From the IMG/VR virus record IMGVR_UViG_3300045988_140747: a stretch of DNA of 64,000 nucleotides; one strand, 5' to 3'. Source of the DNA: a virus. Shown piece after piece: positions 3,151-61,169 of this stretch. Positions within the stretch are counted from its first letter, which is position 1. Each line of letters opens with the position of its first letter. The position numbers and the translations under genes were made by a program. The notes below the pieces were generated by a model, which was not told the DNA's origin, made no database searches, and saw only the letters and a program-made list of their open reading frames with translations.

Positions 3151-3351
3151 ATGAATGAACGTGAGAAAGAAGGAGTCCTTCGCATCTCAAATGAAGCGGA
3201 TCGTATGACTGTCGTTGCCATCCTGTATAAGAACGGATACAGTGTGTCTCCGATTCGGAGGAAGAAAAACGGTAGAAGCTACGAATACTTTATCAAATAT
3301 TCGTACAACGAGAGTATCGATGAAATCGGAGGTACGCCCAGTGACAGTTAA
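3151..3351 (+). CDS. hypothetical small protein
   Basis: 66-aa ORF preceded by AAGGAG. No motif recognised. Confidence 0.5.
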   Translation: MNEREKEGVLRISNEADRMTVVAILYKNGYSVSPIRRKKNGRSYEYFIKYSYNESIDEIGGTPSDS

Positions 3352-4062: not shown

Positions 4063-4082
4063 TATTTTAGGAGGAAACTGAA

Positions 4083-25691: not shown

Positions 25692-25717
25692 TTACCATAC
25701 CGGAAGGAGATATAAGC

Positions 25718-27110: not shown

Positions 27111-30100
27111 AAGAGGAACTCGAAGCTGGAATGCCAAGCAATGATGAGAGCCAAGAGCAAACGCCTGATGATGGACAGCCTGCTACTCCTGATTCTCAAC
27201 CTACTGGAAATGATGAAAAAGCCGGACCTGGTCAGCTCCTGAACGAAAAGACTCTCTCTGCTGTTGGAAACAATGCAAAAGATCCTGCCACCATGGAGAC
27301 TAAGGTTAGCTCCGATCCTCATGAAAACAAGGAAGGCACTGAAGGTGATGCCCCTGCATCCGCCCCTGCTGCGACGAAAAAGCCTTCCGACATGGACCCT
27401 GAAGAAAAGGCCAAAGCTGCACAATCGCGCCAAAACAAGGCAAAAGACCGGGAGGACTCACTTCGTACCGATGACAACAATTCTCACTCCGAAGATCAAA
27501 AAGGCTCGGTGGGCGTTATTGTGGTCAATGGGGGCAGAGTCCTGAATGGTACTCGGCACAACGATTTTGGCTACGGCCTTGTCTGTGGCCCCGGCGGTCA
27601 CATTGAAGAAGGTGAAACTCCGGAACAGGCTGCATTCCGAGAGACCAAAGAAGAATTCGGTATTACGCCCAAAAGCCTTATGTGCCTTGGACAAGGGCCT
27701 AAAGAAAAAGATACCGGCCTGAAGCCGTACCTGTTCCTGTGCACCGAATACTACGGCACTCCGAACTGCGAAGATCTCGAGATGACCGGCGCCAAGTTCA
27801 GTACCATTGAGGAATTGAACGAAAAGGCCGAATCCTTGTTCGGCCCGTTCGCAGACGGCCTGAACATCCTGATGGACTGCCTTGAAACCGGCATCTTCTA
27901 TACAGACCCAGCGGAAGGCGTAACTGGCGAGAAACTGAATTCTCATCTGGAAAAGGCTATGAATGCCGATGGAGGTCAAGGATCTGGCAATTTTGGACAC
28001 GAAGGAAGGCCAGGAAAAGTAGGAGGAAGCGCCGAGTCGCACAACTTTGGAGGGCTCAAAAACAGCGAGCTTTCATCTAAGATGAATGGCGTGTTCGATG
28101 ATGCAAAGATAGGAACTCGCTTTTCCGTAAAGATGAACGGCGTTGCCGGAAAAGATGATTATGAAATCTATAAAGTTTCAGATGGATTCTACGTTCGGAG
28201 CAAAAAAGGCGGAAACGATATTGTCAAATCAGTTGACAAGCTCGTCGAGAATTGCGGTGTATACGTCACAAATCTGACCTCTGACAAGGTCATGTATAAG
28301 GAAGCCAACATTGAAGTTGGTGAACCCGAAACAGAAGAAGCACAAAGTTTTACTAGAGCATACGAATCTTGCAGAAAGGAAAGAGAGCGACTTGCATCTG
28401 GGAATTATAAAATCACTGAAGTTGATGATGCTACCGCAAAAAAGTATGCTGACACTTTGAACAAAGCAAGCAAGGCAAAAATCGCAAAACTTGCTATTGA
28501 TGACCCACAGTTCAAGGCTGTTGTTGATAACATTTCTGCGTATACACAGGGAGAATATGTATATCAGCGAAAAGCGACTGAAAAATTCATCAGCAACGGA
28601 TATGACCCATCTAACGATGCAATCCTCGGAGATCGACTTACCGATTCTTTGTATTTATGCAAAGACATGTACAAGGGACAAAATCTTTCCGTTTCCAGTG
28701 CAAGTGTAACGGAAGGCATGGCGAACTTGACAAAGGCTGTGAATTGCTCCGATCCGTTTGACGGAGAGCTGTACCGAGTTGCTCAGGACAGAAGCCTGAT
28801 GAAAACTGCAGACTCTGGAAACCAGGGAGTATACACTCCGCCAAAACCCGGAGAAACAATATCCATAGTTGCTCCTACTTCGTTCTCAAAGGACAAAGCG
28901 GCTATTGATAAGATTGCCAAAGATAAGTCCGGTGATATCATCTATTACACTGTTCAACCGGGTGCTCATGCCGTAGATGTATCAAAGCTGTCACCGTATA
29001 AGCAAGCTGAACTCCTTACCTGCGGAGAATATGAGGTTGTCAGTGTTGATTCCAAGCCTCAGAGAGTTGTTATGACTCAGATCGATCGTTTCACAAGTGA
29101 AACAATCGATTCGCTGAAGGCCAACAGAGGGGCAACAGTTGACGACGGTTTTGTTAAATTTCCAATCCTTGAAACTCATGTGACTCTTCGCCAGAAAGAA
29201 CCTATTCACATGGATTCTTGCGATGATAGCATCCACAGATACAGACCCGACGATTTTTCCGAACGGATGGTCTATGATGACGAGATTGATCTCGATGGTG
29301 GCCCAGGGTCTGGGAACTATGGGCACGAGGGCGTTCCGGGGCAAGTGGGCGGAAGCGCCCCTAGCACAAGCGGTCCGATTTCCAAAAGTAGCTTTCAGAA
29401 GGGCTCTGGTCACTTTGAAGTAACTGGTGACGTGAAAGATATGTATCTCACAAAGCCGGCAAGAACCAGAATTGAAGGGGCTATTAAAACGGTGAAAACC
29501 GCTAATGACCTCAAGAAATATCTTGAAAATCAAGGAATCAAGCTTGAAACGTCTTATGAACCACTCAAGAAAGCGATGGATAGAGAGATCCCGTCCATCA
29601 AGGAGCAGGCTGATTATGTGATTGCCGCTATTGAGCAGTACAAGGATCTCGGTGGGCTTAAAGCGCTTAAAGCGGTTCACATCTATGACCATGATATTGA
29701 TGCACAGGCGCAGTACAGCTATCGCGCAAAAGGGGAAGGTGATGTTCCAGACGAGGGACATTTGTATATCAGCTACATGGCTAATGGAGAGCAAATTATG
29801 CATGAGTTTGCTCACGCCTATGCTGACTCCACAAAGCCTGATGGAATGGATGTTGTCGAATGGTCAGCGAAGCTCAACCAAGAAGCAGGCCTTTCGAAAA
29901 ACGTAAAATCATACTTCGGCGCGGACAGCGATGCTAAAGAAGCTGAGCGTTTTGCCAATGCGATTGGGTACGCAATTGCGGATGGAGATGGACCGGATGG
30001 CCGACTTGCATTTGCTGCAAATGTTGCGAATATCGTAAGAAATTCCAATGGATCGTCCGCAGGAATGTCCGGCGGAAACCTTGCATTTAGAAGCATGATT

Positions 30101-47718: not shown

Positions 47719-48099
47719 ATGGCATTGAAAGATCTTGCCCTCAACTCGCAAGGAGATTTGTTCATCAATGAAAAAGGTGACTTTGAAATCATTGACTCAG
47801 TTCGCCAAGCTGTATCCATAAAGCTGAGATGGATAAAAGGCGAATGGATCTTCAACAAAGCGCTCGGAACCCCGTACTTTGAATCCATCCTCATAAAAAA
47901 TCCAAGTGAGCATTTGATTGAGAAGCTCATCAAAGATCAAATCTTGAGCGTTGATGGGATTATCGGCGTTAGCTATATCAACTTGGTCAATGATCGCTCG
48001 AAGCGAACACTGACAGTCAAATTTGCGGCGAAAACTTCTGAAGAAGAAATAGAGAGCGAGGTGGAATTGTCTCATGCCGGATCTTGGAATAACACCTAA
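47719..48099 (+). CDS. baseplate wedge protein (gp25/W-like, DUF2634-like)
   Basis: ATG 47719, 9 nt after GGAG. GDFEIIDSVRQAVSIKLRWIKGEWIFNKALGTPYF pattern. Confidence 0.55.
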   Translation: MALKDLALNSQGDLFINEKGDFEIIDSVRQAVSIKLRWIKGEWIFNKALGTPYFESILIKNPSEHLIEKLIKDQILSVDGIIGVSYINLVNDRSKRTLTVKFAAKTSEEEIESEVELSHAGSWNNT

Positions 48100-49591
48100 A
48101 GGCTTTGTCATGCGCCGTTTGGACGAAATCTATGATACTGCCTGCAAAAGGTTCAAAACAGAAGTTGGAATAGACCCGTCCGAGAATCCTCAGAGCTTTA
48201 TGAATGTGCTCTTCACCATCTTTTCTGATGAGCCTTCAATGCTTTGGGAGATATTCGCAGCCGGATATCAAAACCTTTTTCCTAATACTGCCGAAGGGAT
48301 TGCGCTTGACAACTGTATGCAGCTTGGCGGAGTCAGCCGTATTGGACAGTCAAAAACAAAATACACTCTTGCCTGCACAGGGCGAGAAGGAACCACTATT
48401 CCCGTTGGCGCTATCGTTCAGACAAGCTCTTTTCCTCAAAGGCAGTTCCAAGCATCAGAAGTCTCTCAGATTTCAAGTGTAAATTGGAATGTCCTTGATA
48501 TCGCTCCAATTGAGAGCATTTCTGGAGACATTACTTTCACATTTGGCGTTGTGCGAAGCTCAACATCTGGCGAGGTTGGAGCCTACGACGAGTCAATATC
48601 TGTTACTAAAGATCTTTCGGTGTCCTCTTATGACGATGCCTTCAGTCAGATTTTTAGTGTGCTCCAAAATTTTAGCGATCTGAAAAAATACGGAATCTCC
48701 GTTTCAAAGATCGCTGATGATAGTGGAGGATCCGTTATCCGGTTCAAGTCCTCTGGTTCTTCTGATAGCTTTTCCGCCACGCTCTGCCGCTACATAACGG
48801 TGGTCTCGGTCACAAGCAATATTGCCTTTGAGAGCGTCGATTATGGAAGCGTCGTTTTGGCAAACGGAACCATAACAGATATCGTTACTACAGTAGATGG
48901 ATGGAGCTCTTGCACCAATTGCATCGCTCCGATAAAGGGAAGACTTGTTCAGACTGATGCTGAAGCAAGATCCAGCTACACAAATCGAGTTGCCATGCGC
49001 GGAACCGGAACGGTTCTTAGCATCGCTTCTCTGCTGTACAACGATGTTGATGGGGTCACATTTTCCACTGGATACCAAAACGATGGTGATGAACCCGATT
49101 CTGCCGGAAGACCGCCTCATAGCATTGAAATGATCGTTCAGGGCGGAAGCGACGATGACGTTGCAAAAGTAATCTGGGAAAACAAGTCTGCTGGTATTCG
49201 GGCGTATGGATCTCATTATGCCTACGCTGTTGATTCCAACGGCCAAAAACAGTATGTGGAATTTACTCGCGTTCTGGATGTCTACTTGCTTGTGTCTGTT
49301 AAGATCACAAGTTCTGATGGACTGGATGATGATTATGTCTCCAGAATTCAGACCCTTCTCCTTGATGAGCAGCTTCATACGGGTCAGGTGATCCGACTGC
49401 AAAAATTCATCAGGCCAATTCTCGAATCTGTTTCTGGAGTTGATTTTGTCGAAATCAGAGGGATGCTCAGTAGAACCCCTGACATTTCTGATGTGTCTGA
49501 TGATGAGCTGTTGAACGGAGTTGTTCCCGTCAAAATCAATCAGCAACCGATTCTGACTCCCAAATGCATTAGGGTGGTGAAGACAACTTGA
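48074..49591 (+). CDS. baseplate J-like protein
   Basis: 505 aa. N-terminal PKGFVMRRLDEIYD...NLFPNTAEGIALDNCMQLGGVSR is typical of Baseplate_J. Confidence 0.75.
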   Translation: MPDLGITPKGFVMRRLDEIYDTACKRFKTEVGIDPSENPQSFMNVLFTIFSDEPSMLWEIFAAGYQNLFPNTAEGIALDNCMQLGGVSRIGQSKTKYTLACTGREGTTIPVGAIVQTSSFPQRQFQASEVSQISSVNWNVLDIAPIESISGDITFTFGVVRSSTSGEVGAYDESISVTKDLSVSSYDDAFSQIFSVLQNFSDLKKYGISVSKIADDSGGSVIRFKSSGSSDSFSATLCRYITVVSVTSNIAFESVDYGSVVLANGTITDIVTTVDGWSSCTNCIAPIKGRLVQTDAEARSSYTNRVAMRGTGTVLSIASLLYNDVDGVTFSTGYQNDGDEPDSAGRPPHSIEMIVQGGSDDDVAKVIWENKSAGIRAYGSHYAYAVDSNGQKQYVEFTRVLDVYLLVSVKITSSDGLDDDYVSRIQTLLLDEQLHTGQVIRLQKFIRPILESVSGVDFVEIRGMLSRTPDISDVSDDELLNGVVPVKINQQPILTPKCIRVVKTT

Positions 49592-49827
49592 TATCTGCTT
49601 ACAACAATATGGTTGAAAAGCTCCCACTGCAATTTCGTCTGGAAGCTTGTGACGAATCTTATTTCGGAGACTTTATTTGTGATACGAAAGACGATCTTAA
49701 AAGCTTGCCAACCGATTGTGCAATGGGAAGCATCGCCAGAGTTATCGAGCCGCCATCTATTTATAGAAAAAGTGCATCTGGCACTTGGGTTCTGCAAAAA
49801 AGCGTCGGGGAGGATGAAGAAATTTGA
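49588..49827 (+). CDS. hypothetical tail protein
   Basis: 79 aa. TTG start overlapping the upstream stop. Alternative ATG 49609. Confidence 0.4.
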   Translation: MISAYNNMVEKLPLQFRLEACDESYFGDFICDTKDDLKSLPTDCAMGSIARVIEPPSIYRKSASGTWVLQKSVGEDEEI

Positions 49828-50405
49828 GCTACGAAATCATCGAAACCACCCCCATACGGATAGAAAAAATGTCCGTCATAGATGGTATCCCCTGGGCATT
49901 TTCTCCGGCATATGAAGAATTGGAGCTTGCACTCGGTCAGATTGAAAGTCTGAATGATATTGATTCGTGTTCTGGCGTTCTACTTGATCGCATAGGGCAA
50001 ATTGTTTGCTTGTCCAGACAGGAAGCGGGCATCATGATCGGAAGCCGTGAGCTTGCTGACGACGACAGCATCTATAGGGTATGCCTTAAATATAAGGCTT
50101 ATGTCAACAGCTGTCGCTGTACCCCGGATGAAATCATTGAAGCGACAAAAATTATTTTTGGGGCTTCACAGGTTTTGTACAGCGAGCAGCGAGACACACC
50201 AGCCACATTTCATCTGTCAATATCTGCGCCTTTTTCCGATCTAGTTCTTTCGATTCTTGGATCTCACGATCTTATCGTTCATCCTGCCGGCGTAAAGGTC
50301 AAAGCGGATTGTTCTACAGTAGATACAGATACATTCGGATTTGTTGACATAAATCCAAATGTTGCGGGGTTCGGAAACGGAAAATTCGCGCAATCGATTA
50401 ACTAA
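49824..50405 (+). CDS. tail-fibre-proximal baseplate protein (DUF2612/XkdU-like)
   Basis: VLLDRIGQIV...DDDSIYRVCLKYKAYVNSCRCTPDEII pattern. Confidence 0.45.
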   Translation: MSYEIIETTPIRIEKMSVIDGIPWAFSPAYEELELALGQIESLNDIDSCSGVLLDRIGQIVCLSRQEAGIMIGSRELADDDSIYRVCLKYKAYVNSCRCTPDEIIEATKIIFGASQVLYSEQRDTPATFHLSISAPFSDLVLSILGSHDLIVHPAGVKVKADCSTVDTDTFGFVDINPNVAGFGNGKFAQSIN

Positions 50406-50423: not shown

Positions 50424-51458
50424 GTGGCCGAAACACGATCCGGATTAGTTGTGGATGACTATTCAAAAGTTGCCTTTTCTGTAGATGGCACCAAACAGGA
50501 GCTATCTATTGACGAATGGAAGGCCGGCTGGGCTACCATTGTTGGCGGCATTAACGGAAAGCCGACAAGCCAGCAGTTCAACATGGTTACATACATTCTG
50601 TCAAGCTTGCTGAATCAAGCCATTTCAGATCTTTCAACTGTTAAAAGCACCGCCAATGACGCACTGCCAAAGACCGAATTCACAGCGGATCAAATTGCAA
50701 AGATGCTTGCAGAACTGGATCTGATGAATGGATGCAACGCCGATAAGCTTGACGGAAAACATGGCGATGAATATGCGTCTGCAGACCATAAGCATTCTGC
50801 AGACGACATTGAAGTCGGAACATTGCCCATCGAACGAGGTGGAACATATGCCACTACCGCTCCTGAGGCGTGTGCAAATCTTGGCGCAATGCAGACAGCC
50901 GGCGGTACGTTCATTGGTGATGTTTACTTTGCAAACGGAACTGCGCATTATGTTTTGTCAACAGGCGACGCGCATCTTAAATCTTTGACGGTATCTGGTG
51001 ATATCAATGCAAAGCGAGTCTACGATGCAGTTTATAACGACTATGCTGAGTTGATGCCGCGTGGCGAACAAACAGAACCGGGCGACATCGTTGCTCTCGA
51101 TACCAGCAGTCAGACGGAACGATACATCAAGGCAACGAATTTGTCTGACCGTATCGCTGGAGTCCACACTGATGAGTTTGCAATGCTTATCGGCGGCAAT
51201 AAAGTTAGAGAAGGGCAGGATTTCCTTGCGGAAAACCTGCCCTCTTTTATTCCTGTTTCTCTTGCTGGCCGTGTGCATACCAAAGTGATCGGGCCTGTTC
51301 ATACGGGTGACTACATTGTTTTGTCTGAAACGCCAGGAATCGGACGTGCCGTTGGTTCGTGTGAATCCTGCCCGACCGATAAAATTGTTGGCTACGCTTG
51401 TGAAGGCGATGACCGAACAGATCTTAGACTGGTAAAAGTCAGAGTAGGGGGCAAGTGA
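50424..51458 (+). CDS. tail fibre protein 1
   Basis: GTG after AAAGGAGG. W..GW..IVGGINGKPTSQQFN, DKLDGKHGDEYA..HKHSADDIEVGTLPIERGG: classic fibre motifs. Confidence 0.7.
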   Translation: MAETRSGLVVDDYSKVAFSVDGTKQELSIDEWKAGWATIVGGINGKPTSQQFNMVTYILSSLLNQAISDLSTVKSTANDALPKTEFTADQIAKMLAELDLMNGCNADKLDGKHGDEYASADHKHSADDIEVGTLPIERGGTYATTAPEACANLGAMQTAGGTFIGDVYFANGTAHYVLSTGDAHLKSLTVSGDINAKRVYDAVYNDYAELMPRGEQTEPGDIVALDTSSQTERYIKATNLSDRIAGVHTDEFAMLIGGNKVREGQDFLAENLPSFIPVSLAGRVHTKVIGPVHTGDYIVLSETPGIGRAVGSCESCPTDKIVGYACEGDDRTDLRLVKVRVGGK

Positions 51459-52444
51459 TGATAAAAAAGGATTCACGGTGCTATGCTTCTGACTTTTCTG
51501 AAATAAAGAAAGCACTTGATGCTGAGCTTGGCCGTCGCGGAAAAGCTGAGGGAACAGCGCGTGGGCAGAGCGTTGGCAGCATGGCTTCATACAAACAAGA
51601 GTTCTCAAATGCTATTGCAGTAGGAGAAACTATCAGAAATGAACACATTCAGAAGCTCACTCAGCCTTTGAGCGCCATTACGGGTTCATCCATTGCACCT
51701 GAAAATGGAAACAAGGTTACTGCCGATGTACTGGCTCAAGCTGCATCGATGCTCAGTGAACTCAGTTCGGTCGAGGAGACATCCTCATCAAGCGGATGCG
51801 CAGGAGCGTGCTCCGGCCTTTGCGCAACTGGTTGCTATTCCTCGTGTTCTGGATGTACCGGTAGCTGCACGGGTGGTTGTTTAGACTCTTGCGTTGCGAC
51901 TTGCGCAGATGATTGCGTTGGTGGCTGCAAGACAACATGCTCTGGATTGTGCACCGGGACATGCACTGGAACGTGCACGCAAGCATGTGCAAATACTTGC
52001 GGAGGAACATGTACCGGCACTTGCATGGGCACCTGCGTAAATTCCTGCACTGGCAACTGCGTTGGAAAATGTACAGGTACATGCACAGCAGCCTGTGCCG
52101 ATAGCTGCACAAGGAACTGTAAGACAACCTGTAGTGGCGGATGCTCCGGTTCATGTGATGGTTGTTCAAGTTCCTGCGAGGGAAGCTGCAGCACCAATTG
52201 TGCTGATAGCTGCGATAACAATTGCACGACTGGGTGCAAATCTTATTGTGCAAATAGCTGTCAGGATAGTTGCGCTGGAACGGGTTGCCTTGCTAACTGC
52301 GAAAGCGGCTGCTCGAACTCTTGCAGAGGCGACTGTAATTCGCACTGCGGTTCACAGTGCACTAGCGGTTGCGATTCAAGCTGCGATGGATGTTCTGGAT
52401 CGTGTTCCGGTGGCTGCACAAGCTGCTCTGGATTCTTATTTTAA
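51455..52444 (+). CDS. CXXX-repeat (54-Cys ladder) protein, candidate radical-SAM substrate
   Basis: GTG/ATG 51455/51458 overlaps the fibre gene stop. 114-aa non-repetitive N-domain, then about 215 aa with Cys at nearly every 4th residue (CTGTCTGTCTQACANTC...). Confidence 0.8.
   Translation: MMIKKDSRCYASDFSEIKKALDAELGRRGKAEGTARGQSVGSMASYKQEFSNAIAVGETIRNEHIQKLTQPLSAITGSSIAPENGNKVTADVLAQAASMLSELSSVEETSSSSGCAGACSGLCATGCYSSCSGCTGSCTGGCLDSCVATCADDCVGGCKTTCSGLCTGTCTGTCTQACANTCGGTCTGTCMGTCVNSCTGNCVGKCTGTCTAACADSCTRNCKTTCSGGCSGSCDGCSSSCEGSCSTNCADSCDNNCTTGCKSYCANSCQDSCAGTGCLANCESGCSNSCRGDCNSHCGSQCTSGCDSSCDGCSGSCSGGCTSCSGFLF
51797..52441 (+). repeat. 12-nt periodic Cys-codon array (54 TGC/TGT codons)
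   Basis: Units counted by hand: 49 CXXX, 4 CXX, 1 CXXXX. Spacer residues are almost only G/S/T/A/D/N. Confidence 0.9.
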
Positions 52445-52462
52445 AAAATACAGGAGGAAAAG

Positions 52463-53047
52463 ATGGACGCTACTATTCATTATGCAAGTAACGGCGACTC
52501 AGATGCAGATGCATCGTATCTCAGAAATCTGCCGATCATTAAGCTCCTTCAAAAGGCCACCATCGATGTCGATGACTGGAGTGTGCTCTTGTCTGCCGCT
52601 CCTAACGGCGAAGATAAGCTTTTCTGGTGTCTTGGATATGCTGGCGCTCTTTGTGCTATCGACGCAACAGACTTTGATGACTGGTTTATCTACTGCCTTA
52701 CAGTCGTGGACTCCGCTTTGCAAGCCTGCAAAATCGAGAGTGCTTCTGATGAGCGCCGAAACCTGCTTGCTCTTGGGCTTGCATCGAGAACTTTTAATTT
52801 TGCAGCAAATCCTGTCACCAAAGATCTGAAATGTAAGGACGCATTACTCGGCGCTGGCGATTACCGTTGTTCTGAAGATGCTGATATCTTTGCCATGTGG
52901 TTTGCTCTTCGCATCTTGACTGAATATCTGAGGCTTGACTTCAACAGCAATCTGCGGGCTTTGACAAATGCCATGGTGTCCATGAACAAAATTCGGGAAC
53001 GGTACAGCCAGATTGCAGACAGGCTTCCGAAAATGGATGCCTGCTGA
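52463..53047 (+). CDS. hypothetical protein of the CXXX/rSAM cluster
   Basis: 194 aa, RBS CAGGAGGAAAAG. Seven Cys. No family recognised. Confidence 0.6.
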   Translation: MDATIHYASNGDSDADASYLRNLPIIKLLQKATIDVDDWSVLLSAAPNGEDKLFWCLGYAGALCAIDATDFDDWFIYCLTVVDSALQACKIESASDERRNLLALGLASRTFNFAANPVTKDLKCKDALLGAGDYRCSEDADIFAMWFALRILTEYLRLDFNSNLRALTNAMVSMNKIRERYSQIADRLPKMDAC

Positions 53048-53067
53048 GATCTGAAAAGGGGAAGAGT

Positions 53068-53370
53068 ATGAAAATTGTAGAGTTGACTACCATCGAGAGC
53101 GAAACTGTAGAGCGTGCTTTTTATGAGGCACAGTCGTATGAGTCGCTCATGGCGGTTCTCAGCCGACAGCTGAATGCCAATGCGAATCCTGAAACTGCCA
53201 AGATCCTTATGCATTATGCAGAGCTGTGCAGAGCTGCACAAATGAAGCTTAAAATGGCACAGGATACCGTCGTTTCGCGGTATATCGACCTGAACGATCC
53301 GCGATATGTCCGATACCAATTCGATTTCGGCAGGGAGGAGGTCCATCTCCTTGAAAAACAAGAGATTTGA
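53068..53370 (+). CDS. hypothetical small helical protein of the CXXX/rSAM cluster
   Basis: 100 aa, RBS AAAAGGGGAAG. No family recognised. Confidence 0.6.
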   Translation: MKIVELTTIESETVERAFYEAQSYESLMAVLSRQLNANANPETAKILMHYAELCRAAQMKLKMAQDTVVSRYIDLNDPRYVRYQFDFGREEVHLLEKQEI

Positions 53371-54700
53371 GGACTACGGAAATACAGTCCAAAGACTGTA
53401 CTGCCGAGACCTTCCTGAAACCAGCAGTGCATGCCGCAATATCACATTTCAGGTTACGAACGGCTGCAATCTTCGGTGTTCTTATTGCTATGAGCATCAC
53501 AAGGGATCGGAGCATATGAGCGTCGAGACCGGCAGAAAAATTGTTGATTACTTGCTTGACCAGTACGAACGCAACGATTCGGACTTCATCAACTGGAATA
53601 CACGGGCTGTCGTTCTCGACTTTATCGGCGGAGAACCGCTGCTTGAGGCCACTTTGATTGAACAGATCTGTGATTACTGGTTTTCAGAATGCTTCCGTCG
53701 CGACATTCCACTGGCTCCGTTCACAAGGATCTCTTTTGCTACGAATGGTCAACTCTGGTTTAGCTCTGAAGCGCAGCATTTGATTGAAAAGTATCACGAC
53801 CTCATGTCAATCACAGTTAGCATTGACGGTGTTCAGGATCTTCACGATATGTACCGCCTCGATGAACACGGTAACGGGAGCTTTTCAAAAGCATGGGTCG
53901 CATTTCAAGATGGAAAGCGCCGCTTTGGATGGGCCAACAGCAAAATGACTTTTGTTCCCGGGTCATTCCCGTACATTTCCGATAGTCTCAAGATGATGTT
54001 AGATGAAGGATGCTCTGATGTCGCTTGTAACTACGCATATGAACCTGTGTATACGCCTGCAGATGGACGGTCTCTGTATGAGCAGCTGAAGATTGTGTCC
54101 GACTACATTGTAGACAACAAACTGGATGTTGTTGTCACGATTCTCGATAGTCTGCTCGGCGGAAAAGCTAAAGACGACAAGAATTTCTGCGGTGGCACAG
54201 GCGCTATGTTATCGTTTGCGCCGGATGGGAGCGCCTATCCATGTATTCGATATGCTCCTATTAGCATTGGTGTGGAAAAAGCCAAGAAAGTCCGCTTTGG
54301 AAGCGTCTACGATGGACTATATGTCACTGATGAGCAAAAACGTGTAAAAGCGGATCTTGACGCAATTACTCGTACAACACAGTCTCCAAAAGAATGCTTG
54401 GAATGCCCTGTGTCTGCAGGGTGCGGCTGGTGTTCTGGCATGAATTATGAGGTGTTCGGTACAGCCAATAAGCGTACCACCTCTATTTGCTGGGCACACA
54501 AGGCCCGTGTCCTTGCAAGTGCCTATTATTACAATCACCGGTATGTTGAGATCGGCGATTGCCTGCCAATCAAGGTCGAACTGCCTGAAACCGATGCGCT
54601 GAAGATCCTCTCCAAGCAAGAGTATTCTAAGTTTCAGAACTTAGAAAAAAAGGCGCTGCTGAAATTTGCTGATGCAGCAGGAATTAGAAGAAAGGAGTGA
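53351..54700 (+). CDS. radical SAM / SPASM-domain enzyme (peptide/protein maturase-like)
   Basis: TTG 53351, 9 nt after GGAGGAGG (alt. ATG 53306). CNLRCSYC cluster, GGEPLL, ATNG. C-terminal FCGG...YPCIRY...CLECPVSAGCGWC...SICW is a SPASM-type auxiliary-cluster Cys pattern. Confidence 0.85.
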   Translation: MKNKRFEDYGNTVQRLYCRDLPETSSACRNITFQVTNGCNLRCSYCYEHHKGSEHMSVETGRKIVDYLLDQYERNDSDFINWNTRAVVLDFIGGEPLLEATLIEQICDYWFSECFRRDIPLAPFTRISFATNGQLWFSSEAQHLIEKYHDLMSITVSIDGVQDLHDMYRLDEHGNGSFSKAWVAFQDGKRRFGWANSKMTFVPGSFPYISDSLKMMLDEGCSDVACNYAYEPVYTPADGRSLYEQLKIVSDYIVDNKLDVVVTILDSLLGGKAKDDKNFCGGTGAMLSFAPDGSAYPCIRYAPISIGVEKAKKVRFGSVYDGLYVTDEQKRVKADLDAITRTTQSPKECLECPVSAGCGWCSGMNYEVFGTANKRTTSICWAHKARVLASAYYYNHRYVEIGDCLPIKVELPETDALKILSKQEYSKFQNLEKKALLKFADAAGIRRKE

Positions 54701-54704
54701 AAAA

Positions 54705-56309
54705 ATGGCTGTTTTAATTGCAGAAACCAAGCTCGAAACAATTGATACAGCATGGTACCACTTCTACATTGACAAAGTTGCCGATATAGAGTCACTTCCC
54801 ACTAGTTGTTCGATTGGCATTGCCTTTTCTGTAAAAAAATATGCTCGGCCAACCAGCGTTGCCTACTGCATAGAAGACGCGCATGTATATATGCTCGACA
54901 GCCATGACAAGTGGCGTCCCATGTACGGCTTCTCTGATGATGTTCTTGACGCCCTTGATGTCAAAACAAGTGATTTCTTCAAGATCTGCTCCGAGACAAA
55001 GAACTATAGGGATGAAGCAGTTTCAAATGCTAATTCCTCCGCTAAAAGTGCAGCTGCTGCTCTCGCAAGTCAAAATGCCGCCAAGAACAGCGAGACAAAA
55101 TCTGCTGCAAGTGAAGCCGTAGCAAAAAGAAGTGAGCAAAGTGCAGCAGCTGCAGCTGCAGCTGCAAGCAGCAGTAAAACTTCTGCCGCTGCAAGTGAGG
55201 CAACAGTCAAAGCATCTGCAACTGCTGCCGCTGAATCTCAGGCTAAAGCCGCCGAATCAGAGAAAAATGCAAAGGCTAGCGAGACTTTAGCTGGTACAAG
55301 CGCCACAAACGCATCCACGTCCGCAAAAAATGCAGCCTCTTCCGCCACTACAGCAACTGACGCCGCTACGACAGCTTCCGAAAAGGCTACTGCCGCTAGC
55401 TCTAGTGCCACCAATGCAGCTGCAAGCGCAAAAACTGCAGAAAAAAGCGAAGCAAACGCTAAAATTTATGCTGAGAAAGCTCAACTTATCGGCGACAGTT
55501 ACAAAGGCTGGTACCAAACAGAAAAAGAACTGGCCGCAGATCTGACAGAAGCAAAAAACGGTGACTGGGCGATCGTCGGCGAGTCTGACACCATGTGGGT
55601 GTGGGATGGCGACACCGGCGCGTGGGTCAATACCCGCAAAGAGGTGGACCTGTCGGACTACATGACGCAGGACCAGATCATGAAGCTGCTTGAGCAGTAC
55701 ATGCCACTTCGCCCCGCCACCGCAACCACACTGGGCGGAATTAAGGTCGGCAGTGGACTTTCTGTGACCGAAGATGGAATGCTGAGCGCCGATGCTCAGG
55801 AATACACCCTCCCCGCCGCCACCGCAACCACGCTGGGCGGTGTGAAGGTTGGCAGCGGTCTGACGGTCGATGCGGACGGAACACTTTCTGCGGACAGCGC
55901 TTTGGCTGCCTACCCCGTTGGCAGTATTTTTCAAACAGTCAGCACTACCAGTCCCGCCGAACTGTTCGGCGGTACATGGCAGGAGATTGCATTTAACCGC
56001 GTGCTGATGGGTGCTGGCACAGGCTACACAGCGGGAAGCACGGTGGAGGCCGGACTGCCGAACATCACGGGCAGCTTAATAGAAACAAACGCAGAATCCT
56101 CCCCATTCCGTGGTTCAAAAGCGTCTTTGAAATCATCGGGAGCTTTAAAATTCGTAGAAATCAATACTTCTTGGGGTGGCTACAGTGGTATGTCAGGTTC
56201 GACGTATGATGTTTACTTTGATGCTTCCCGCTCGAACTCAATCTACGGTCGCAGCTATACCGTGCAGCCCGCCGCCTACTATGTGCACATCTGGAAGCGC
56301 GTGGCATGA
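54705..56309 (+). CDS. tail fibre protein 2
   Basis: ATG 54705 after GAAAGGAG. Long Ala/Ser/Thr-rich helical repeat region, duplicated TLGG(I/V)KVGSGL motif, C-terminal YPVGSIFQT...GGTWQEI collar-like domain. Confidence 0.75.
   Translation: MAVLIAETKLETIDTAWYHFYIDKVADIESLPTSCSIGIAFSVKKYARPTSVAYCIEDAHVYMLDSHDKWRPMYGFSDDVLDALDVKTSDFFKICSETKNYRDEAVSNANSSAKSAAAALASQNAAKNSETKSAASEAVAKRSEQSAAAAAAAASSSKTSAAASEATVKASATAAAESQAKAAESEKNAKASETLAGTSATNASTSAKNAASSATTATDAATTASEKATAASSSATNAAASAKTAEKSEANAKIYAEKAQLIGDSYKGWYQTEKELAADLTEAKNGDWAIVGESDTMWVWDGDTGAWVNTRKEVDLSDYMTQDQIMKLLEQYMPLRPATATTLGGIKVGSGLSVTEDGMLSADAQEYTLPAATATTLGGVKVGSGLTVDADGTLSADSALAAYPVGSIFQTVSTTSPAELFGGTWQEIAFNRVLMGAGTGYTAGSTVEAGLPNITGSLIETNAESSPFRGSKASLKSSGALKFVEINTSWGGYSGMSGSTYDVYFDASRSNSIYGRSYTVQPAAYYVHIWKRVA
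55716..55895 (+). repeat. two 78-nt copies (period 102 nt) encoding ATATTLGG(I/V)KVGSGL(S/T)V..DG.LSAD
   Basis: Copies at 55716-55793 and 55818-55895, aligned by eye. Confidence 0.8.
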
Positions 56310-56327: not shown

Positions 56328-56630
56328 ATGATCCCTGTGACATTTGATACTGTGGCAACATTGCAGTTTGGCAGTGAGGGTCACCCGACCAGTCTGCACT
56401 TTGCCATCCCGGAAGAGTGGAAAACCTGCAAAATCAGACTCCACCTGCGGCGCAGCGACGGTAGCTTTGTGCCCCCGATGCAGCTGGACGAAAATGGGTG
56501 CGTAAAAGTAGACCGCAGTGACTCCGGCAAGACCGGCGGACAGTGGATGCTGTCGGCTGAAAGTCCTGACGGAAAAGTATCTTACTCGCGAATCGGCAAA
56601 TATGTGACCCCCATGGAGGTGACACAATGA
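56328..56630 (+). CDS. hypothetical tail-fibre-associated protein
   Basis: 100 aa, RBS GAAAGGAGG. Confidence 0.55.
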   Translation: MIPVTFDTVATLQFGSEGHPTSLHFAIPEEWKTCKIRLHLRRSDGSFVPPMQLDENGCVKVDRSDSGKTGGQWMLSAESPDGKVSYSRIGKYVTPMEVTQ

Positions 56631-57349
56631 AGATCCTTGACGAGACCGGCGCGGTCGTGGAAAACCCCGACCTGACCCTTGGCTACCTGACCGACGACAC
56701 CGAAGAAGTTACCCACCCCGCCGTAGAGGGCGTGGAGGAGCAGTGGCACTGGGAGACCGTGACCGAGTATCCGAACGGCGGCAAGGATGTGCAGAAGGTC
56801 ATCGACGTGCCGGGCGTGCCTGCGCAGGCCGCATGGACCGAACAGGTGCCGGTGCAGAGATACATCCGTTACACGGAAGAAGAGCTGGCCGAAATAAAAG
56901 AATCTCTACGCACAGAAAAACTAAAAGAGGTTTCTGCTGATTGTGAAAAGGCAATTTACGCAGGTATCGATGTGATATTTGCAGATGAATCACAAAAACA
57001 TTTTAGTCTTCAACCCAATGACCAAACTAATATTGATAGTGTTTTTAATGCAATTGTATTGGGCGCAACAGAATACCCGTACCATGCCGATGGTGAGCCG
57101 TGTGTTATGTATAGTGCAGCTGACATTATGACTTTGTATGTGGCTTACAAAAGCTTTATCACCAGGCAGACCACGTATTGCAACTTTTTGCGTCAGTGGA
57201 TTAAGCGCGTTGACAACAAAGAAGCTCTGAACGCGATTGAGTACGGCGCAACTCTTCCGGATGATTTGGAGGCTGGCGTTGAAAAGATTCTGAGTGCAGC
57301 GGAGCAGCAGGTTCAGTCTATCATCGCAAAGCTTACAGAAGGTAATTGA
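56627..57349 (+). CDS. DUF4376-like tail-fibre-associated protein
   Basis: C-terminal FSLQPNDQTNIDSV...MYSAADIMTLYVAYKSFITRQTTYCNFLRQWI pattern. Sharp GC-to-AT composition change near nt 56885 inside the gene. Confidence 0.5.
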   Translation: MKILDETGAVVENPDLTLGYLTDDTEEVTHPAVEGVEEQWHWETVTEYPNGGKDVQKVIDVPGVPAQAAWTEQVPVQRYIRYTEEELAEIKESLRTEKLKEVSADCEKAIYAGIDVIFADESQKHFSLQPNDQTNIDSVFNAIVLGATEYPYHADGEPCVMYSAADIMTLYVAYKSFITRQTTYCNFLRQWIKRVDNKEALNAIEYGATLPDDLEAGVEKILSAAEQQVQSIIAKLTEGN

Positions 57350-57464: not shown

Positions 57465-57887
57465 TTGAATAGATTAAAAGAGATTTTGAAGTGTCTTGTT
57501 CTATTTTTAATTGGCGGAACTCTTTACTGCTGCCTCGAAGTTCTATGGCGCGGATATACCCACTGGACGATGGCTGTTGTGGGCGGTTGCTGCTTTATTG
57601 TTATCGGTGGATTAAATAACTATATTCCTTGGGAAATGAAAATCTGGAAGCAAGGAGTTGTTGGCGCGGTATTCGTTACCGCGATGGAACTTGTTGTTGG
57701 CGTTCCTCTCAACCTGTTCATGGGCTTAAATATCTGGGATTACTCTCAGGTGCCTTTTAACTTTCTTGGACAGATTTGTTTGCCGTTTACTGTTCTTTGG
57801 TTCTTTCTGTCAATTCTGTGCATTTTTGTTGATGACTGGCTACGTCATATTTTGTTCAAAGAAGAAAAGCCTAAATATTATTGGTAA
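57465..57887 (+). CDS. small polytopic membrane protein (ABC-transporter type IV-like/DUF1113-like)
   Basis: TTG start. Four hydrophobic segments. LIGGTLYCCLEVLWRGYTHW motif. Confidence 0.5.
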   Translation: MNRLKEILKCLVLFLIGGTLYCCLEVLWRGYTHWTMAVVGGCCFIVIGGLNNYIPWEMKIWKQGVVGAVFVTAMELVVGVPLNLFMGLNIWDYSQVPFNFLGQICLPFTVLWFFLSILCIFVDDWLRHILFKEEKPKYYW

Positions 57888-58253: not shown

Positions 58254-61169
58254 ATGATCGAGTTCCCCATCACGCTGACATCCGGCGGCAGCGTATGCAT
58301 GCCCGGGTACGTATTTGCGCTGGCCCTCGGCTACACCAAGAACCTGGGCGTGTACCGCCTGCACGTCGATGCAACCGGCGAGTGGGAAGGGCTGACTATC
58401 CGCTGCTTCTGGCACGTGCCGGACGGCAAAGATCCGTCATCCTCGTTGGTGGTGGACGGCTATGTGGACGTGCCCGCCAGCGTGACCGCACAGCCCGGGA
58501 GCGGGTGCATCACCTTTGAGGGCAGCGATGACACCAAGAACATCACCAGCGCAGACCTGCACTACCGTGTAAGTGCCAACTCAGGCACAGAGGATGGCAC
58601 AGAGCCGGAACCGGGCACCCCTGCATGGCAGCAGCTGGTGGATGCCGTGCACACTGACGCCACCGCCGCAGAGCAGGCCAAGACCGATGCACAGACGGCA
58701 GCACAGCAGGCCGGGGCATCTGCCCAAAAGGCTGGGAATGCCCTTTCTGACACCATTACCGCCAAAGAGGATGCTCTGAAAGCCACCAAAGACGCACAGA
58801 CCGCTGCTAGTGAAGCCAGTGCATCAGCCGAAAATGCTGCGCTTGCACAAGTTACAGCATCTCAACTTGCAGGACAGGCAGCGGGCAGTGCGTCTGAAGC
58901 TCAAAACAGTGCCACTAAGGCTGCTGCGAGTCAACAGACCGCCGAAAGCAATGCAGCAGCTGCACAAGGGAGCGCCACAAAGGCCGAGGCATCAGCTTCT
59001 ACAGCTGTTCAGGGACAACAGCGTGCGGAGGCGGCAGCAGCCCGTGCCGAAACCGCACAGCAGCAGACTGAAAGTGCCAGCACTGACGCGCTGGATAAAA
59101 TCAGCTCTGCAAAAACTGATGCACTGAAAGCCATCGGTAACAAGCAGACTTCTGCCACCACTGCAGTAGAAAGCGCTCAGGGAAAAGCTCTTGACGCTGT
59201 GGCTGATGCCAAGAACACCGCCGTAACAGCCGTGACCGATGCTCAGACCGCCGCCACACAGGCAGTGGGCACTGTCCAAGCTAATGCCATTCAGCAGATG
59301 AAATCCACAAAAACAGACGCTCTGAAAGCCATCGGTGACAAGCAGACCGCCGCCACGCAGGCTGTGGACACGGCCCGGGACAAGGCCCTCCAGCAGGTGG
59401 GAGCCTCTACAGAAGCCGCACAGACCGCAGCCAATAAAGCCGCCACCAGTGCGGGCAATGCAGACCAGAGCGCTCAGAAGGCCGCTGGCAGTCTGCAGGA
59501 GCTCAAGAACGGCATCGCAAGCGGTGACTTCAAAGGCGAGCCCGGCAACGACGGGAAATCTCCAGTTGTAACTGTACTTGGCATCGAAAATGGCCATCGT
59601 GTTAGCATCACTGACAAAGACGGTACCAAAACAATTGATGTCTTGAATGGCAAAGACGGCAAAGATGCTCCACAAATTGATGACACCACTGTGGGGCTTG
59701 ACGCATGGAGCAGCAAGCACATCGTGGATATGCTCTGTCCGCCGCTTGAGGAGACCGGGAACCCGGTGCAGTGTTATCCTGTGGCGGAATATCCGCTGGG
59801 CTGTAAGGTGAGCTGGGAACCCGTGCAGGAAGGCAGTGGAACACCGTATCCGGCAGGTGGCGGAAAAAACCTGTTTAATCCTGCATGGATGCCAGAAAAA
59901 ACCTTGAACAATGGATTAACATGGACAACGACCTCCGATGGCACTGTAACAGCAAACGGAACGGCAAATGGGACTTCATACTACAATTCTGATTATTTTT
60001 CGCTCCCTGCGGGCACATACACGATTAGCGCAATGCCGTATTCCCGTATGTCAATTCTCAATAGGGATGTAGGCGATACTACAGTTGCTGCCCAACAGGT
60101 TGGGCAGCCGTGTACATTTACGGTAGAGACTGACATACAAAATGCCTCCTTGTTTTTTGCCACCTCTGGCATACTGGATAATGTTTCGGCAAAACCGCAG
60201 ATAGAGAAAGGCACGACTGCAACAGCCTATGCACCCTACGAAAACATTCGCTCGATTAAGGGCAAGGGCAGCGTGACGGTCGAGCGGTGCGGGGGAAATC
60301 TGCTGAATCCAAAAGAGAACGCCAATGATACATATACTCCGTATGGCCTAACGATAACTTATATTGGGGATAACAAGGTTCATTTAAGTGGAACTTACCA
60401 AGAAAACGGCGGCAGCTTTGCCATCCTTGACACTCAGCAAAAACTTCTTGCGGGAAAAGGGCTGAAAATCACCGGATTTACGGTAGCCGGAACAAAACAA
60501 AGCTACACTCTTTACGGACTACGGACAAAAAACGAAACCGTTATTGCTATGAGTGCACAGTTTGCAAAAGGCGATGTTATTGATATGACTGTCGCTGTTG
60601 TCGTGTCAGGCACCACCGCCCCTACCACTTACGCCCCTTACACCGGCCAAACCGCCACCCTCACTCTGCCCCGCACCATCTACGGCGGCACGGTGGATGC
60701 AGTGACAGGAGAGGGAAACGAAAACGCAAAGATTATCACGCTGGACGGCAACGAACTGAAATTTGTCAAAGCCAACATCTATATCAACCTCCCGAATCAT
60801 TCTGCACCGGGGATTTCAAAAGGTGGAATTGTTTGTTGTAGTCACTTTAACAAAAGGCTTTTTGCCGTGAATACGACTTACGAGTTTTGTTTTTTGTTAG
60901 AGTCTGATATGACTAGTCTTTTTGCCAGTGTTGACGACCTGAATGCCTACCTTGCTGCCCAGTACGCAGCCGGAACTCCCGTGCAAATCGCTTACAAGCT
61001 GGCAGAGCCTATGCCCTTCACTGCACCTGGTGCACAGCCCATCCCCGCTCTGAGCGGCGTGAACACAGTCCTGACCGATGCAGACAGTGCAACCGTTACC
61101 GGCAAGGCTGACCCCATCAAACGCATTACTGACCTTGAGGACGCAGTAGCGTCCATGACAACGACCTAA
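58254..61169 (+). CDS. tail fibre / receptor-binding protein 3 (971 aa)
   Basis: RBS CAAGGAGG. About 330-aa Ala/Gln/Thr-rich helical repeat region, GDFKGEPGNDGKSP collagen-like turn, beta-rich C-terminal half. Confidence 0.75.
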   Translation: MIEFPITLTSGGSVCMPGYVFALALGYTKNLGVYRLHVDATGEWEGLTIRCFWHVPDGKDPSSSLVVDGYVDVPASVTAQPGSGCITFEGSDDTKNITSADLHYRVSANSGTEDGTEPEPGTPAWQQLVDAVHTDATAAEQAKTDAQTAAQQAGASAQKAGNALSDTITAKEDALKATKDAQTAASEASASAENAALAQVTASQLAGQAAGSASEAQNSATKAAASQQTAESNAAAAQGSATKAEASASTAVQGQQRAEAAAARAETAQQQTESASTDALDKISSAKTDALKAIGNKQTSATTAVESAQGKALDAVADAKNTAVTAVTDAQTAATQAVGTVQANAIQQMKSTKTDALKAIGDKQTAATQAVDTARDKALQQVGASTEAAQTAANKAATSAGNADQSAQKAAGSLQELKNGIASGDFKGEPGNDGKSPVVTVLGIENGHRVSITDKDGTKTIDVLNGKDGKDAPQIDDTTVGLDAWSSKHIVDMLCPPLEETGNPVQCYPVAEYPLGCKVSWEPVQEGSGTPYPAGGGKNLFNPAWMPEKTLNNGLTWTTTSDGTVTANGTANGTSYYNSDYFSLPAGTYTISAMPYSRMSILNRDVGDTTVAAQQVGQPCTFTVETDIQNASLFFATSGILDNVSAKPQIEKGTTATAYAPYENIRSIKGKGSVTVERCGGNLLNPKENANDTYTPYGLTITYIGDNKVHLSGTYQENGGSFAILDTQQKLLAGKGLKITGFTVAGTKQSYTLYGLRTKNETVIAMSAQFAKGDVIDMTVAVVVSGTTAPTTYAPYTGQTATLTLPRTIYGGTVDAVTGEGNENAKIITLDGNELKFVKANIYINLPNHSAPGISKGGIVCCSHFNKRLFAVNTTYEFCFLLESDMTSLFASVDDLNAYLAAQYAAGTPVQIAYKLAEPMPFTAPGAQPIPALSGVNTVLTDADSATVTGKADPIKRITDLEDAVASMTTT
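59112..59399 (+). repeat. internal ~90-nt duplication (period ~198 nt): KTDALKAIG(N/D)KQT.AT.AV..A..KAL
   Basis: Copies about 59112-59201 and 59310-59399, aligned by eye. Coordinates approximate. Confidence 0.6.

Follow-up and report, generated by a model that had tools for sequence, protein, structure and literature searches.

We analyzed a 64,000-nucleotide (nt) stretch of viral DNA (IMG/VR record IMGVR_UViG_3300045988_140747; "the window" below refers to this whole stretch), in which four open reading frames (ORFs) between two tail-fibre genes encode a protein carrying a ladder of regularly spaced cysteines, two small proteins and a radical S-adenosylmethionine (SAM) enzyme with a SPASM domain. 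These four genes, referred to here as the cassette, would form a phage-adapted version of the CXXX-repeat radical SAM protein-modification system, expressed together with the late tail genes. The enzyme very likely modifies the ladder, as the pairing of the two holds across phyla and phage types, and the products are likely cysteine-derived thioethers, as the nearest characterized enzymes all make thioethers. For the picture as a whole, in which thioether stapling in the cytoplasm matures a fibre-associated cysteine-ladder protein, we estimate a probability of about one half. The families involved are already catalogued, in NCBIfam, in PHROGs (phrog_1802 and phrog_6085) and in Pfam (PF27846). 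What is new in the phage version is that the N-terminal domain of the target, here called ladN, replaces the twin-arginine translocation (Tat) leader, that the TIGR04119 protein is lost, that the TIGR04116 partner has diverged, that an additional protein, ORF ii, is present in one clade, and that the cassette resides obligatorily in tail-fibre modules.

The genes considered, with lengths in amino acids (aa), are as follows:

50424-51458, + strand: fib1, tail fibre (weak match to phrog_11393)
51455-52444, + strand: cysteine-ladder protein, 329 aa (Cys spacing, TIGR04114, phrog_6085)
52463-53047, + strand: ORF ii, 194-aa all-alpha accessory protein (AlphaFold2 model)
53068-53370, + strand: ORF iii, 100-aa remote homologue of TIGR04116 (CXXX_rpt_assoc; profile-profile alignment)
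53351-54700, + strand: radical SAM/SPASM maturase, 449 aa from a TTG start (TIGR04115 as best family)
54705-56309, + strand: fib2, second tail fibre (PF21939 Gp10_C and several PHROG tail-fibre families)

All six genes were found where an earlier reading of the bare sequence, the original prediction, had placed them. The genes are closely spaced, with gaps of 18 nt between ladder and ORF ii, 20 nt between ORF ii and ORF iii, and 4 nt between the enzyme gene and fib2, while the 3' end of ORF iii and the start of the enzyme gene overlap by 20 nt. No convincing internal promoter or terminator was found when the cassette region was scanned, and the G+C content of the cassette is the same as that of its flanks.

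The cysteine-ladder protein

The ladder gene starts with a GTG codon (51455) that overlaps the fib1 stop (GTGATGA). The encoded protein consists of ladN (residues 1-114, nt 51455-51796; ladN profile, E 8e-32), of 54 rungs of the form C-[TSA]-G-[SGT] (residues 115-324, nt 51797-52426) and of a short C-terminal tail, SGFLF (residues 325-329, nt 52427-52441). The overlapping start, the 114-aa N-domain and a cysteine at nearly every fourth residue had all been predicted, and all hold. Of the 53 Cys-Cys spacings in the ladder, 48 are of four residues, four of three residues and one of five; in 100,000 shuffles of residues 115-329, spacings of four occurred 5.6 times on average and 17 times at most. 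The predicted number of 54 cysteines is correct for the ladder, yet the protein as a whole contains 55, since there is one more at residue 9.

A tandem repeat at the DNA level was ruled out as the source of this pattern. As the DNA is not tandemly repeated and as Cys codon use in the ladder gene (TGC:TGT, 38:17) matches that of the rest of the genome (148:63), the periodicity is maintained at the protein level. A non-coding artefact was likewise ruled out, as both the frame and the N-domain are conserved in about 100 loci. In the library searches that the original prediction had proposed, the ladder passed the TIGR04114 repeat model (28.8 bits, cutoff 20), just as the enzyme found TIGR04115 (see below). 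The ladder also scored 38 bits with TIGR04117, below the cutoff, and matched phrog_6085 (E 9e-14), and its homologues carry a precomputed match to PF27846 (tSAM_targ_Cxxx_rpt). The ladder protein has no signal peptide, no hydrophobic segment in ladN and no twin-arginine leader.

Rung composition is the same in the phage, Bacteroidales, Margulisbacteria and jumbo-phage ladders considered below, with T, S or A at the first position after Cys, mostly G at the second and S, G or T at the third. In phage ladders, 86% of the spacings are of four residues and 12% of three. The N-domain, in contrast, distinguishes the classes. With the consensus ..DF..LK..V.AE..RR....GS...Y....Y...P..G..I..EH..K..PL.AI., ladN was detected in 99 collected loci, every one of phage or prophage type; none of the collection's Bacteroidales, Margulisbacteria or jumbo-phage ladders was found to contain it. 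Direct comparison with the jumbo-phage N-domains showed no similarity (P = 0.4), while that with the Margulisbacteria N-domains gave P = 0.004.

When 1.84 billion representative proteins were searched exhaustively with HMMER, 220 ladN clusters (defined at 50% identity) were obtained at E <= 0.001. From the best 150 of these 220 clusters, 141 representatives were newly retrieved; all contain ladN, and 111 have at least six rungs. Their median length is 200 aa with 22 Cys and their maximum is 63 Cys, which places the 54 rungs of the window near the top of the range. In the collected loci, the number of ladder Cys lies between 11 and 86 while the N-domain stays constant, and protein length in the family ranges from 125 to 522 aa. 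The longest of these (P0315, 522 aa; L191, 7001-8569) carries a 190-aa globular domain without a family match after the ladder. Its architecture is fibre-like, with a distal head following the ladder.

Further observations on ladder proteins should be mentioned. A short aromatic tail follows the last Cys in many phage ladders (SGFLF, SGFLW(SKN), GGLFF) and is conserved among relatives. In one protein (P0293, 334 aa), the ladder continues at its C-terminus into a domain resembling ORF iii; this is either a real fusion or a gene-calling artefact and, if real, hints at a physical interaction between ladder and ORF iii. Database entries for ladN proteins (P0121-P0149) are mostly truncated, frameshifted or chimeric within the ladder. 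The repeat is thus evidently hard to assemble or to gene-call, and the ladN family is therefore under-represented in protein catalogues. When the ladder protein was searched by tblastn against 50,697 phage records, no match was found, probably because the low-complexity filter strips the ladder and the N-domain is too diverged.

The radical SAM/SPASM enzyme

The enzyme gene likely starts at the TTG codon at 53351, which lies behind the ribosome-binding site GGGAGGAGG and agrees with the homologues. The predicted CX3CX2C motif, CNLRCSYC, occupies residues 39-46 (C39, C43 and C46; nt 53465-53488), and the predicted C-terminal multi-Cys region has SPASM spacing, with seven Cys at residues 280, 298, 349, 352, 358, 361 and 380 (nt 54188-54490). 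All ten of these Cys are invariant in an alignment of 13 sequences reaching down to 26% identity. TIGR04115 is by far the best family (316.7 bits, E 2e-94, profile positions 2-359 of 359). This is the maturase family of the CXXX-repeat target that the original prediction had named. The PapB family (NF047865) comes second, with 134.3 bits over the whole profile against a cutoff of 340, followed by CcpM, the SCIFF maturase and QhpD. Other scores, for the SCIFF, anSME and sactipeptide maturases, also lie below the curated cutoffs, namely TIGR03974 (74.6 versus 425), TIGR03942 (50.4 versus 349) and RumMC (57 versus 720). Only PF04055 (Radical_SAM) and PF13353 (Fer4_12) were matched in Pfam, while in PHROGs the enzyme matched phrog_1802 with 231 bits. 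Among PDB sequences, CteB (5wgg, E 7e-15), the thioether maturase of SCIFF, matched best, with the anaerobic sulfatase-maturating enzyme anSME next. The enzyme has no N-terminal recognition domain (RRE) of the type found in systems for peptides that are made on the ribosome and modified after translation (RiPPs), with the CX3CX2C motif already at residue 39. As there is no built-in recognition domain, a separate substrate-presenting partner is plausible.

ORF iii and ORF ii

Both small proteins had been described as unrecognizable, which remains the case for ORF ii only. ORF iii matched nothing directly in the libraries searched and showed no direct match when 16 members of its family were compared with TIGR04116 by HMMER, and an earlier hhalign comparison based on a shallow alignment was not significant (P = 0.04). 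The link was made by an iterated profile of 73 sequences. With it, hhalign matched ORF iii to the TIGR04116-like family from one end to the other (92.5%, E 4.8e-7), and independently built alignments gave 94.7% (E 5.7e-8) over 91 columns. The two families also have a C-terminal hairpin motif in common, W-x-[IL]-[DN]-F-x-T-x-E-[IV]. On this profile evidence, ORF iii is a remote homologue of TIGR04116. The split between the two families tracks the N-terminus of the target, ladN in phages versus a Tat leader in Bacteroidales. The iterated ORF iii profile covers 103 loci, nearly every phage-type locus collected, so that ORF iii, as far as profiles can tell, is the universal small partner of phage cassettes. 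A search of PDB sequences with this profile returned nothing meaningful.

ORF ii gave no match in Pfam, NCBIfam, PHROGs or PDB sequences. Its AlphaFold2 model consists of eight helices and is confident, with a mean predicted local distance difference test (pLDDT) of 88.4 and a predicted template modelling score (pTM) of 0.85. Foldseek found no fold relative of this model in the PDB (best E 0.42, TM 0.34), and in BFVD it matches uncharacterized gut-phage proteins only (E 1.8e-6). ORF ii occurs in 75 loci and is confined to the clade in which the enzyme is more than about 50% identical to that of the window. It is similar neither to TIGR04119 nor to TIGR04116, nor to the 178-aa and 145-aa ORFs that occupy the equivalent position in other prophages, and these candidate relationships were rejected. 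It should be noted that a query in which ORF ii and ORF iii were concatenated recovered ORF ii homologues almost exclusively.

Occurrence in phages and linkage to tail fibres

A scan of IMG/VR with the window enzyme yielded 36 loci (73-95% identity). As far as the contigs reach, the gene order in these is wedge, DUF2612, fib1, ladder, ORF ii, ORF iii, enzyme and fib2. A wider, alignment-based scan found at least 411 viral contig stretches with the cassette, at identities of 36-95% and on contigs of up to 262 kb. A ladder ORF adjoins the enzyme gene in nearly all IMG/VR loci, with a few showing a short ladder or a disrupted gene, and in most genome loci too. The predicted co-occurrence is thus borne out, with linkage conserved across more than 150 examined loci and with readable phage contexts, throughout, among tail-fibre or tail-tip genes. 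Carriers include myoviruses, siphoviruses, jumbo phages and phages in which TAG is recoded; a cultured phage with a ladN-type cassette was not found in the phage collection.

A fib1-type ORF with a chaperone domain lies immediately 5' of 69 of 100 ladN ORFs, and in other lineages the upstream genes match PHROG tail-fibre families or appear fibre-like. In siphovirus-like modules, the tape measure, Dit and Tal genes are followed by the ladder, ORF iii and the enzyme, and then by a holin or lysin. The linkage also holds when the search starts from the fibre. Mature fib1 found 38 loci at 65-83% identity, and in all 32 of the fib1 relatives with at least 2.5 kb of downstream sequence, the whole cassette (ladN, ORF ii, ORF iii and enzyme) is present. 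Between the window and one close relative (L006), the enzymes are 95-99% identical, while fib1 (76%), ladN (61%) and the wedge (68%) are considerably more divergent. Judging from these identities, divergent fib1 and ladN beside conserved enzymes represent the mosaicism typical of host-recognition modules. Within the module, it is fib2 that varies most between relatives (47-60% identity).

The fib1 protein itself is predicted to end in a Peptidase_G2-type intramolecular chaperone of about 139-155 aa (from nt 51039), with autocleavage between N205 and D206 in the motif YN/DYAE. Mature fib1 would thus probably end at residue 205 (residues 1-205, nt 50424-51038). PF11962 was detected in 10 of 11 fib1 homologues (best E 1.8e-8), while the window copy reaches only E 0.033, below the cutoff. 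The fib1 profile also matches the phi29 gp12 auto-chaperone and the Dpo31 chaperone domain in the PDB (E 0.015-0.045), with the DYAE motif aligned to the S691/D692 cleavage site of phi29. As in phi29 gp12-type fibres with Peptidase_G2, fib1 would have a C-terminal chaperone domain; its mature part, however, is a short fibre and not a beta-helix spike. A likeness to R-pyocin fibres is seen at an HKH motif (E 0.22).

Some individual loci are worth describing. In six IMG/VR loci (L161-L166, on contigs of 110-180 kb; e.g., L162, 7001-8269 and 8300-8800), TAG is the only in-frame stop codon within the enzyme and ladder genes, and one such codon aligns to the nearly invariant Gln34 of the enzyme; on this alignment, these phages appear to read TAG as Gln, and they retain the cassette. 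Two contigs of about 259 kb, 3300045988_125976 (L142, L152) and 3300045988_138928 (L140, L156), each contain two copies of the cassette, with enzymes 52-61% identical to that of the window. In Faecalibacterium phage FP_Brigit (NC_047909; L040, 13755-16914), the corresponding site, behind the P2 I-like gene and one tail-fibre gene, is occupied by a diversity-generating retroelement (Avd and reverse transcriptase). At the host-recognition locus, related phages thus employ two devices that differ greatly.

Cellular counterparts and known systems

The CXXX-repeat system (TIGR04114, TIGR04115, TIGR04116 and TIGR04119) was reportedly defined in silico by Haft and Basu in J Bacteriol in 2011. When one genome per prokaryotic species was scanned, no enzyme was more than 38% identical to that of the window. 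The loci collected fall into three classes, found in Bacteroidales, Firmicutes prophages and Margulisbacteria. In Bacteroidales, one to five short ladder genes accompany TIGR04115, TIGR04119 (a second maturase, of SPASM type) and TIGR04116, and the ladder leaders contain a conserved twin-arginine motif (..SRREFFKKAAK..LPILGA). Such a Tat leader is in keeping with a substrate made rigid in the cytoplasm and exported afterwards. The Firmicutes prophage class has the same N-domain of about 105 aa as the window protein, and its cassette, which has no TIGR04119, is surrounded by baseplate, fibre and lysis genes. In Margulisbacteria (Candidatus Termititenax; L101-L105, e.g., L102, 4671-6656), giant ladders of 495-667 aa with 79-122 Cys are followed by an ORF of about 100 aa and a 399-aa radical SAM enzyme, in chromosomal surroundings without phage genes, and the ladders have no Tat leader. 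TIGR04119 was found in 58 loci, nearly all from Bacteroidales, and was not found in the phage-type loci among L001-L120 (the genome set and the first IMG/VR set), later viral loci not having been searched for it. One record deposited as "Bacteriophage sp." (MT837480, 6.8 kb; L002, 2222-6270) contains a Tat-leader ladder, TIGR04115, TIGR04119 and TIGR04116, followed by TatA and TatC, and looks bacterial, of the Bacteroidales type, rather than viral.

The phage cassette resembles the CXXX-repeat system in its full-length TIGR04115 match, in its C-x-G-x rungs and in the TIGR04116-type partner of about 100 aa beside the enzyme. It differs in that the phage enzyme is only 34-38% identical to the cellular enzymes and scores below the cutoff, and in that its target bears a globular N-domain of about 110 aa, whereas the Bacteroidales target bears a twin-arginine leader. 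Moreover, the 54 rungs of the window compare with usually 7-40 in Bacteroidales, and the phage cassette includes ORF ii, sits in a virion tail module and lacks TIGR04119.

With regard to characterized enzymes, PapB installs six thioethers in PapA, one per CXXXD repeat (PMC12373016). In this ranthipeptide (freyrasin) system, as in the cassette, a SPASM radical SAM enzyme faces tandem C-X3 motifs. However, the acceptor of PapB is Asp, while in the window ladder the next Cys stands four positions on, and the phage substrate of 329 aa is not a secreted natural product, whereas PapA is a peptide of about 50 aa with a cleavable leader. The pairs CteB/SCIFF and QhpD/QhpC share with the cassette a radical SAM core and a seven-Cys SPASM domain; nonetheless, their families score 72-75 bits against cutoffs above 400, their substrates contain 3-6 Cys and neither is viral. 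QhpD cross-links a protein subunit that is retained in a larger assembly, and is a precedent for a structural protein as substrate. In the strict sense, the ladder protein is not a RiPP, as the precursor has 329 aa and as the cassette ORFs matched no protease and no transporter in Pfam, NCBIfam or PHROGs.

A functional analogy is offered by the T-even gp38-type tip adhesins, which likewise are encoded right after a fibre gene, consist of an N-domain followed by a Gly/Ser/Thr-rich repetitive distal region and show mosaic divergence along with the fibre gene. Neither sequence nor fold evidence of a relationship between these adhesins and the ladder was found, and no other adhesin is known to require a radical SAM enzyme.

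Jumbo phages

Small ladder ORFs, two or three in tandem, occur in Erwinia phage Asesino and in the Salmonella phages SEGD1 and SPN3US:

Asesino (L003): ladder ORFs at 3097-3480, 3489-3890 and 3934-4140
SEGD1 (L121): ladder ORFs at 3095-3238, 3497-3901 and 3917-4123
SPN3US (L190, NC_027402): ladder ORFs at 3094-3486, 3497-3901 and 3917-4123, reverse strand

The N-domain of these ladders (MAISLKNIRDRL...) differs from ladN. The ladder ORFs lie directly 3' of a gene for a coiled-coil virion protein of about 400 aa and are followed by a 295-aa ORF, a short radical SAM protein and a radical SAM/SPASM enzyme that is 25-27% identical to that of the window. By size and position, the upstream protein of SPN3US corresponds to gp167 (44.8 kDa), which was found in SPN3US virions and for which no assignment to the head was made (PMC5694885, Table 1 and Supplementary Table 1). 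The neighbouring gp168-170 were proposed to be baseplate or tail-fibre proteins (PMC5694885).

These ladder genes are poorly annotated. In the SPN3US RefSeq record they are missing, and the sole coding sequence (CDS), 3570-3905, runs in the wrong frame across the second ladder gene. The SEGD1 record has CDS 169 and 170 in wrong frames over the ladder region, while annotated hypothetical proteins of Asesino correspond to two of its three ladder ORFs. We considered the SPN3US virion proteome, in which gp167-173 are listed and the ladder region is not, as negative evidence and rejected it as such, as the true ORFs are unannotated and the published proteome could not have reported ladder proteins.

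Proposed mechanism and alternatives

We propose that the ladder protein would be synthesized in the cytoplasm, where ladN and/or the repeats would be presented to the enzyme by ORF iii, possibly together with the all-alpha ORF ii. By means of a 5'-deoxyadenosyl radical and auxiliary Fe-S clusters, the enzyme would turn thiols into intramolecular thioethers, each lowering the mass by about 2 Da, with up to about 50 in one chain. If PapB is taken as a guide, each Cys may be linked to or near the next rung, and with the next Cys lying four positions on, consecutive small rings could conceivably form a chain. The resulting stapled rod or knot, redox-insensitive and protease-resistant, would be incorporated into the tail-fibre apparatus as a distal fibre or adhesin element, the likeliest site being at or beside fib1 once its chaperone domain has been cut off. 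Both the presenting role of ORF iii and the joining of the stapled protein to the fibre apparatus are steps that we infer. Disulfides are not usable in a reducing, anoxic cytoplasm, and thioethers would give equal stability.

The original prediction saw in the ladder a cross-linked structural or receptor-binding element of the virion, and the gene context continues to suggest this. The strongest form of this reading should be held more tentatively. In it, the protein forms a virion fibre or whisker, with the distal 215 residues turned by the phage enzyme into contiguous thioether macrocycles, and a redox- and protease-proof receptor-binding or spacing element is thereby made in the reducing cytoplasm of strictly anaerobic hosts. 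This is possible, although we would lean against it.

Several points weigh against stapling of a fibre-associated protein and should be considered when referring to this proposal. The thioether chemistry is deduced only from homology of at most 134 bits to characterized enzymes, and the 316.7 bits of the window enzyme fall below the curated TIGR04115 cutoff of 350. No conserved acceptor residue is seen in the rungs, with Asp accounting for 4-7% of any rung position. The AlphaFold2 model of the full ladder protein is unusable (pLDDT 37), being based on an 8-sequence alignment that is shallow because the database homologues of ladN proteins are mostly truncated or frameshifted inside the repeat. 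TIGR04119, which is constant in Bacteroidales, is lacking in the phage cassette, so that the complete modification may be a different one. A ladder protein is not contained in any virion proteome, although the SPN3US data were unable to detect one. As Margulisbacteria ladders are found outside a phage context, the ladder is not intrinsically part of a virion. Finally, in siphovirus-type prophages the cassette lies between distal tail genes and holin or lysin genes, the classic position of a moron (an accessory cargo gene), and the closest isolate, FP_Brigit, has no cassette.

The last points are those that speak for the cassette being non-structural cargo, with the ladder remaining outside the particle and acting in the lysogen or being released at lysis. 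The ladder could then be, for example, a bioactive product of RiPP type, a buffer for redox or metals, or a factor changing the surface of the host, and the tail site would be a permissive place for insertion. That the window's close relatives are integrated prophages and that the related Bacteroidales and Margulisbacteria systems are cellular and not viral agrees with such a role as well. We nonetheless regard cargo, in any of these roles, as unlikely. The phage ladder comes without a signal peptide, transporter or protease, its start codon overlaps the fib1 stop, the cassette is not bounded by promoter- or terminator-like sites and does not differ from its flanks in G+C, it is flanked by two fibre genes in the window and its relatives with the linkage to fib1 kept in 32 of 32 loci, and the same arrangement recurs in jumbo phages of the lytic type.

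The stapling reading also has to be weighed against a different chemistry, in which the ladder binds metal or Fe-S clusters, or the enzyme catalyzes a non-thioether reaction such as Cys oxidation (as anSME does), C-C linkage or epimerization. The thiol density is indeed extreme, anSME is among the PDB matches and no conserved acceptor residue is visible. The twin-arginine leaders in Bacteroidales, at one locus beside TatA/TatC, point in the same direction, the Tat route being typical of cofactor-loaded or pre-folded proteins; it is, however, equally expected for a rigid protein cross-linked in the cytoplasm. Metal binding alone needs no dedicated radical SAM enzyme kept in every locus, and the nearest relatives by score (PapB, CcpM, SCIFF/CteB and QhpD) all form Cys-derived thioethers, so that we consider this chemistry quite improbable. 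There is only a slight chance that the ladder is a fibre assembly factor (scaffold, ruler or chaperone) that is later discarded, for while genes right after fibre genes often encode fibre chaperones, fib1 itself would depend on a cleavable chaperone domain and the variable ladder length could serve as a ruler, it is hard to see why a chaperone of passing use should have about 50 residues covalently modified at such energetic cost, a globular domain resembling a receptor-binding head ends one homologue, and fib1 would already bring its own chaperone.

The CXXX-repeat system has so far been an orphan, a computer-defined radical SAM family without known chemistry or role, and a distinct version that is common in gut phages gives this family a concrete, testable biological setting. 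The original prediction knew of no biochemistry and no phage-structural context for it. Our full-text literature searches agree, having found nothing on the chemistry of the system, on its occurrence in phages or on radical SAM enzymes in tail modules; the databases, on the other hand, already hold phage homologues, among them a 60%-identical Caudoviricetes protein (P0040) that one source names "CXXX-repeat target family". If the strongest form is true, a structural protein of a virus would for the first time be seen to carry enzyme-installed cross-links of RiPP type, and the CXXX-repeat system would gain its first function. If the ladder is a stapled fibre element, enzymatic radical cross-linking would join the ways in which viruses harden their particles, for which the precedent so far is self-catalyzed chemistry, such as the HK97 capsid cross-links. 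It would also show how phages of strict anaerobes gain disulfide-like stability, and would offer a genetically encoded route to long poly-thioether protein rods. SPN3US-like jumbo phages represent a tractable model, as amber mutants and published virion proteomes exist, with the ladder ORFs un- or misannotated in two records.

Module surroundings and other features of the window

The window reads as a myovirus-type phage genome with nearly all genes on the + strand, six tRNAs, and genes for terminase, a giant portal fusion, prohead protease, major capsid protein, sheath, tape measure, baseplate hub and wedge. FP_Brigit is the nearest isolate, with 64.6% identity in the capsid protein. Profile searches of all window ORFs revealed no TIGR04119 homologue, no second radical SAM enzyme and no second ladder. 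Around the cassette, the distal tail module also contains:

48074-49591, + strand: P2 J-like baseplate wedge protein, which opens the module (phrog_6 baseplate wedge subunit, E 8e-35)
49824-50405, + strand: DUF2612/Phage_Wedge1 (P2 I-like) baseplate protein (PF11041, E 7e-11)
56627-57349, + strand: DUF4376 tail-fibre-associated protein (PF14301, E 3e-7; phrog_1348 tail fibre)

The wedge gene upstream of the cassette is kept in close IMG/VR relatives, and Phage_Wedge1 is the precomputed label on the P2 I-like gene in related prophages. Downstream of the fibre genes, a 140-aa PF06541 membrane protein, possibly holin-like, is encoded at 57465-57887 (+ strand), followed by a 971-aa protein with only faint repeat matches (58254-61169, + strand). 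A homologue of the PF06541 protein and a DUF4376 protein likewise lie downstream of the cassette in another locus (L183), and by annotation, the SPN3US radical SAM genes are also trailed by a DUF4376 protein. Elsewhere in the window, a 2078-aa ORF (25661-31897, + strand) combines a portal (phrog_15528/146) with a region of NUDIX hydrolase type and, at its C-terminus, one of Bxa-like ADP-ribosyltransferase type. This portal fusion is unusually large, and its additional domains are possibly ejected effectors.

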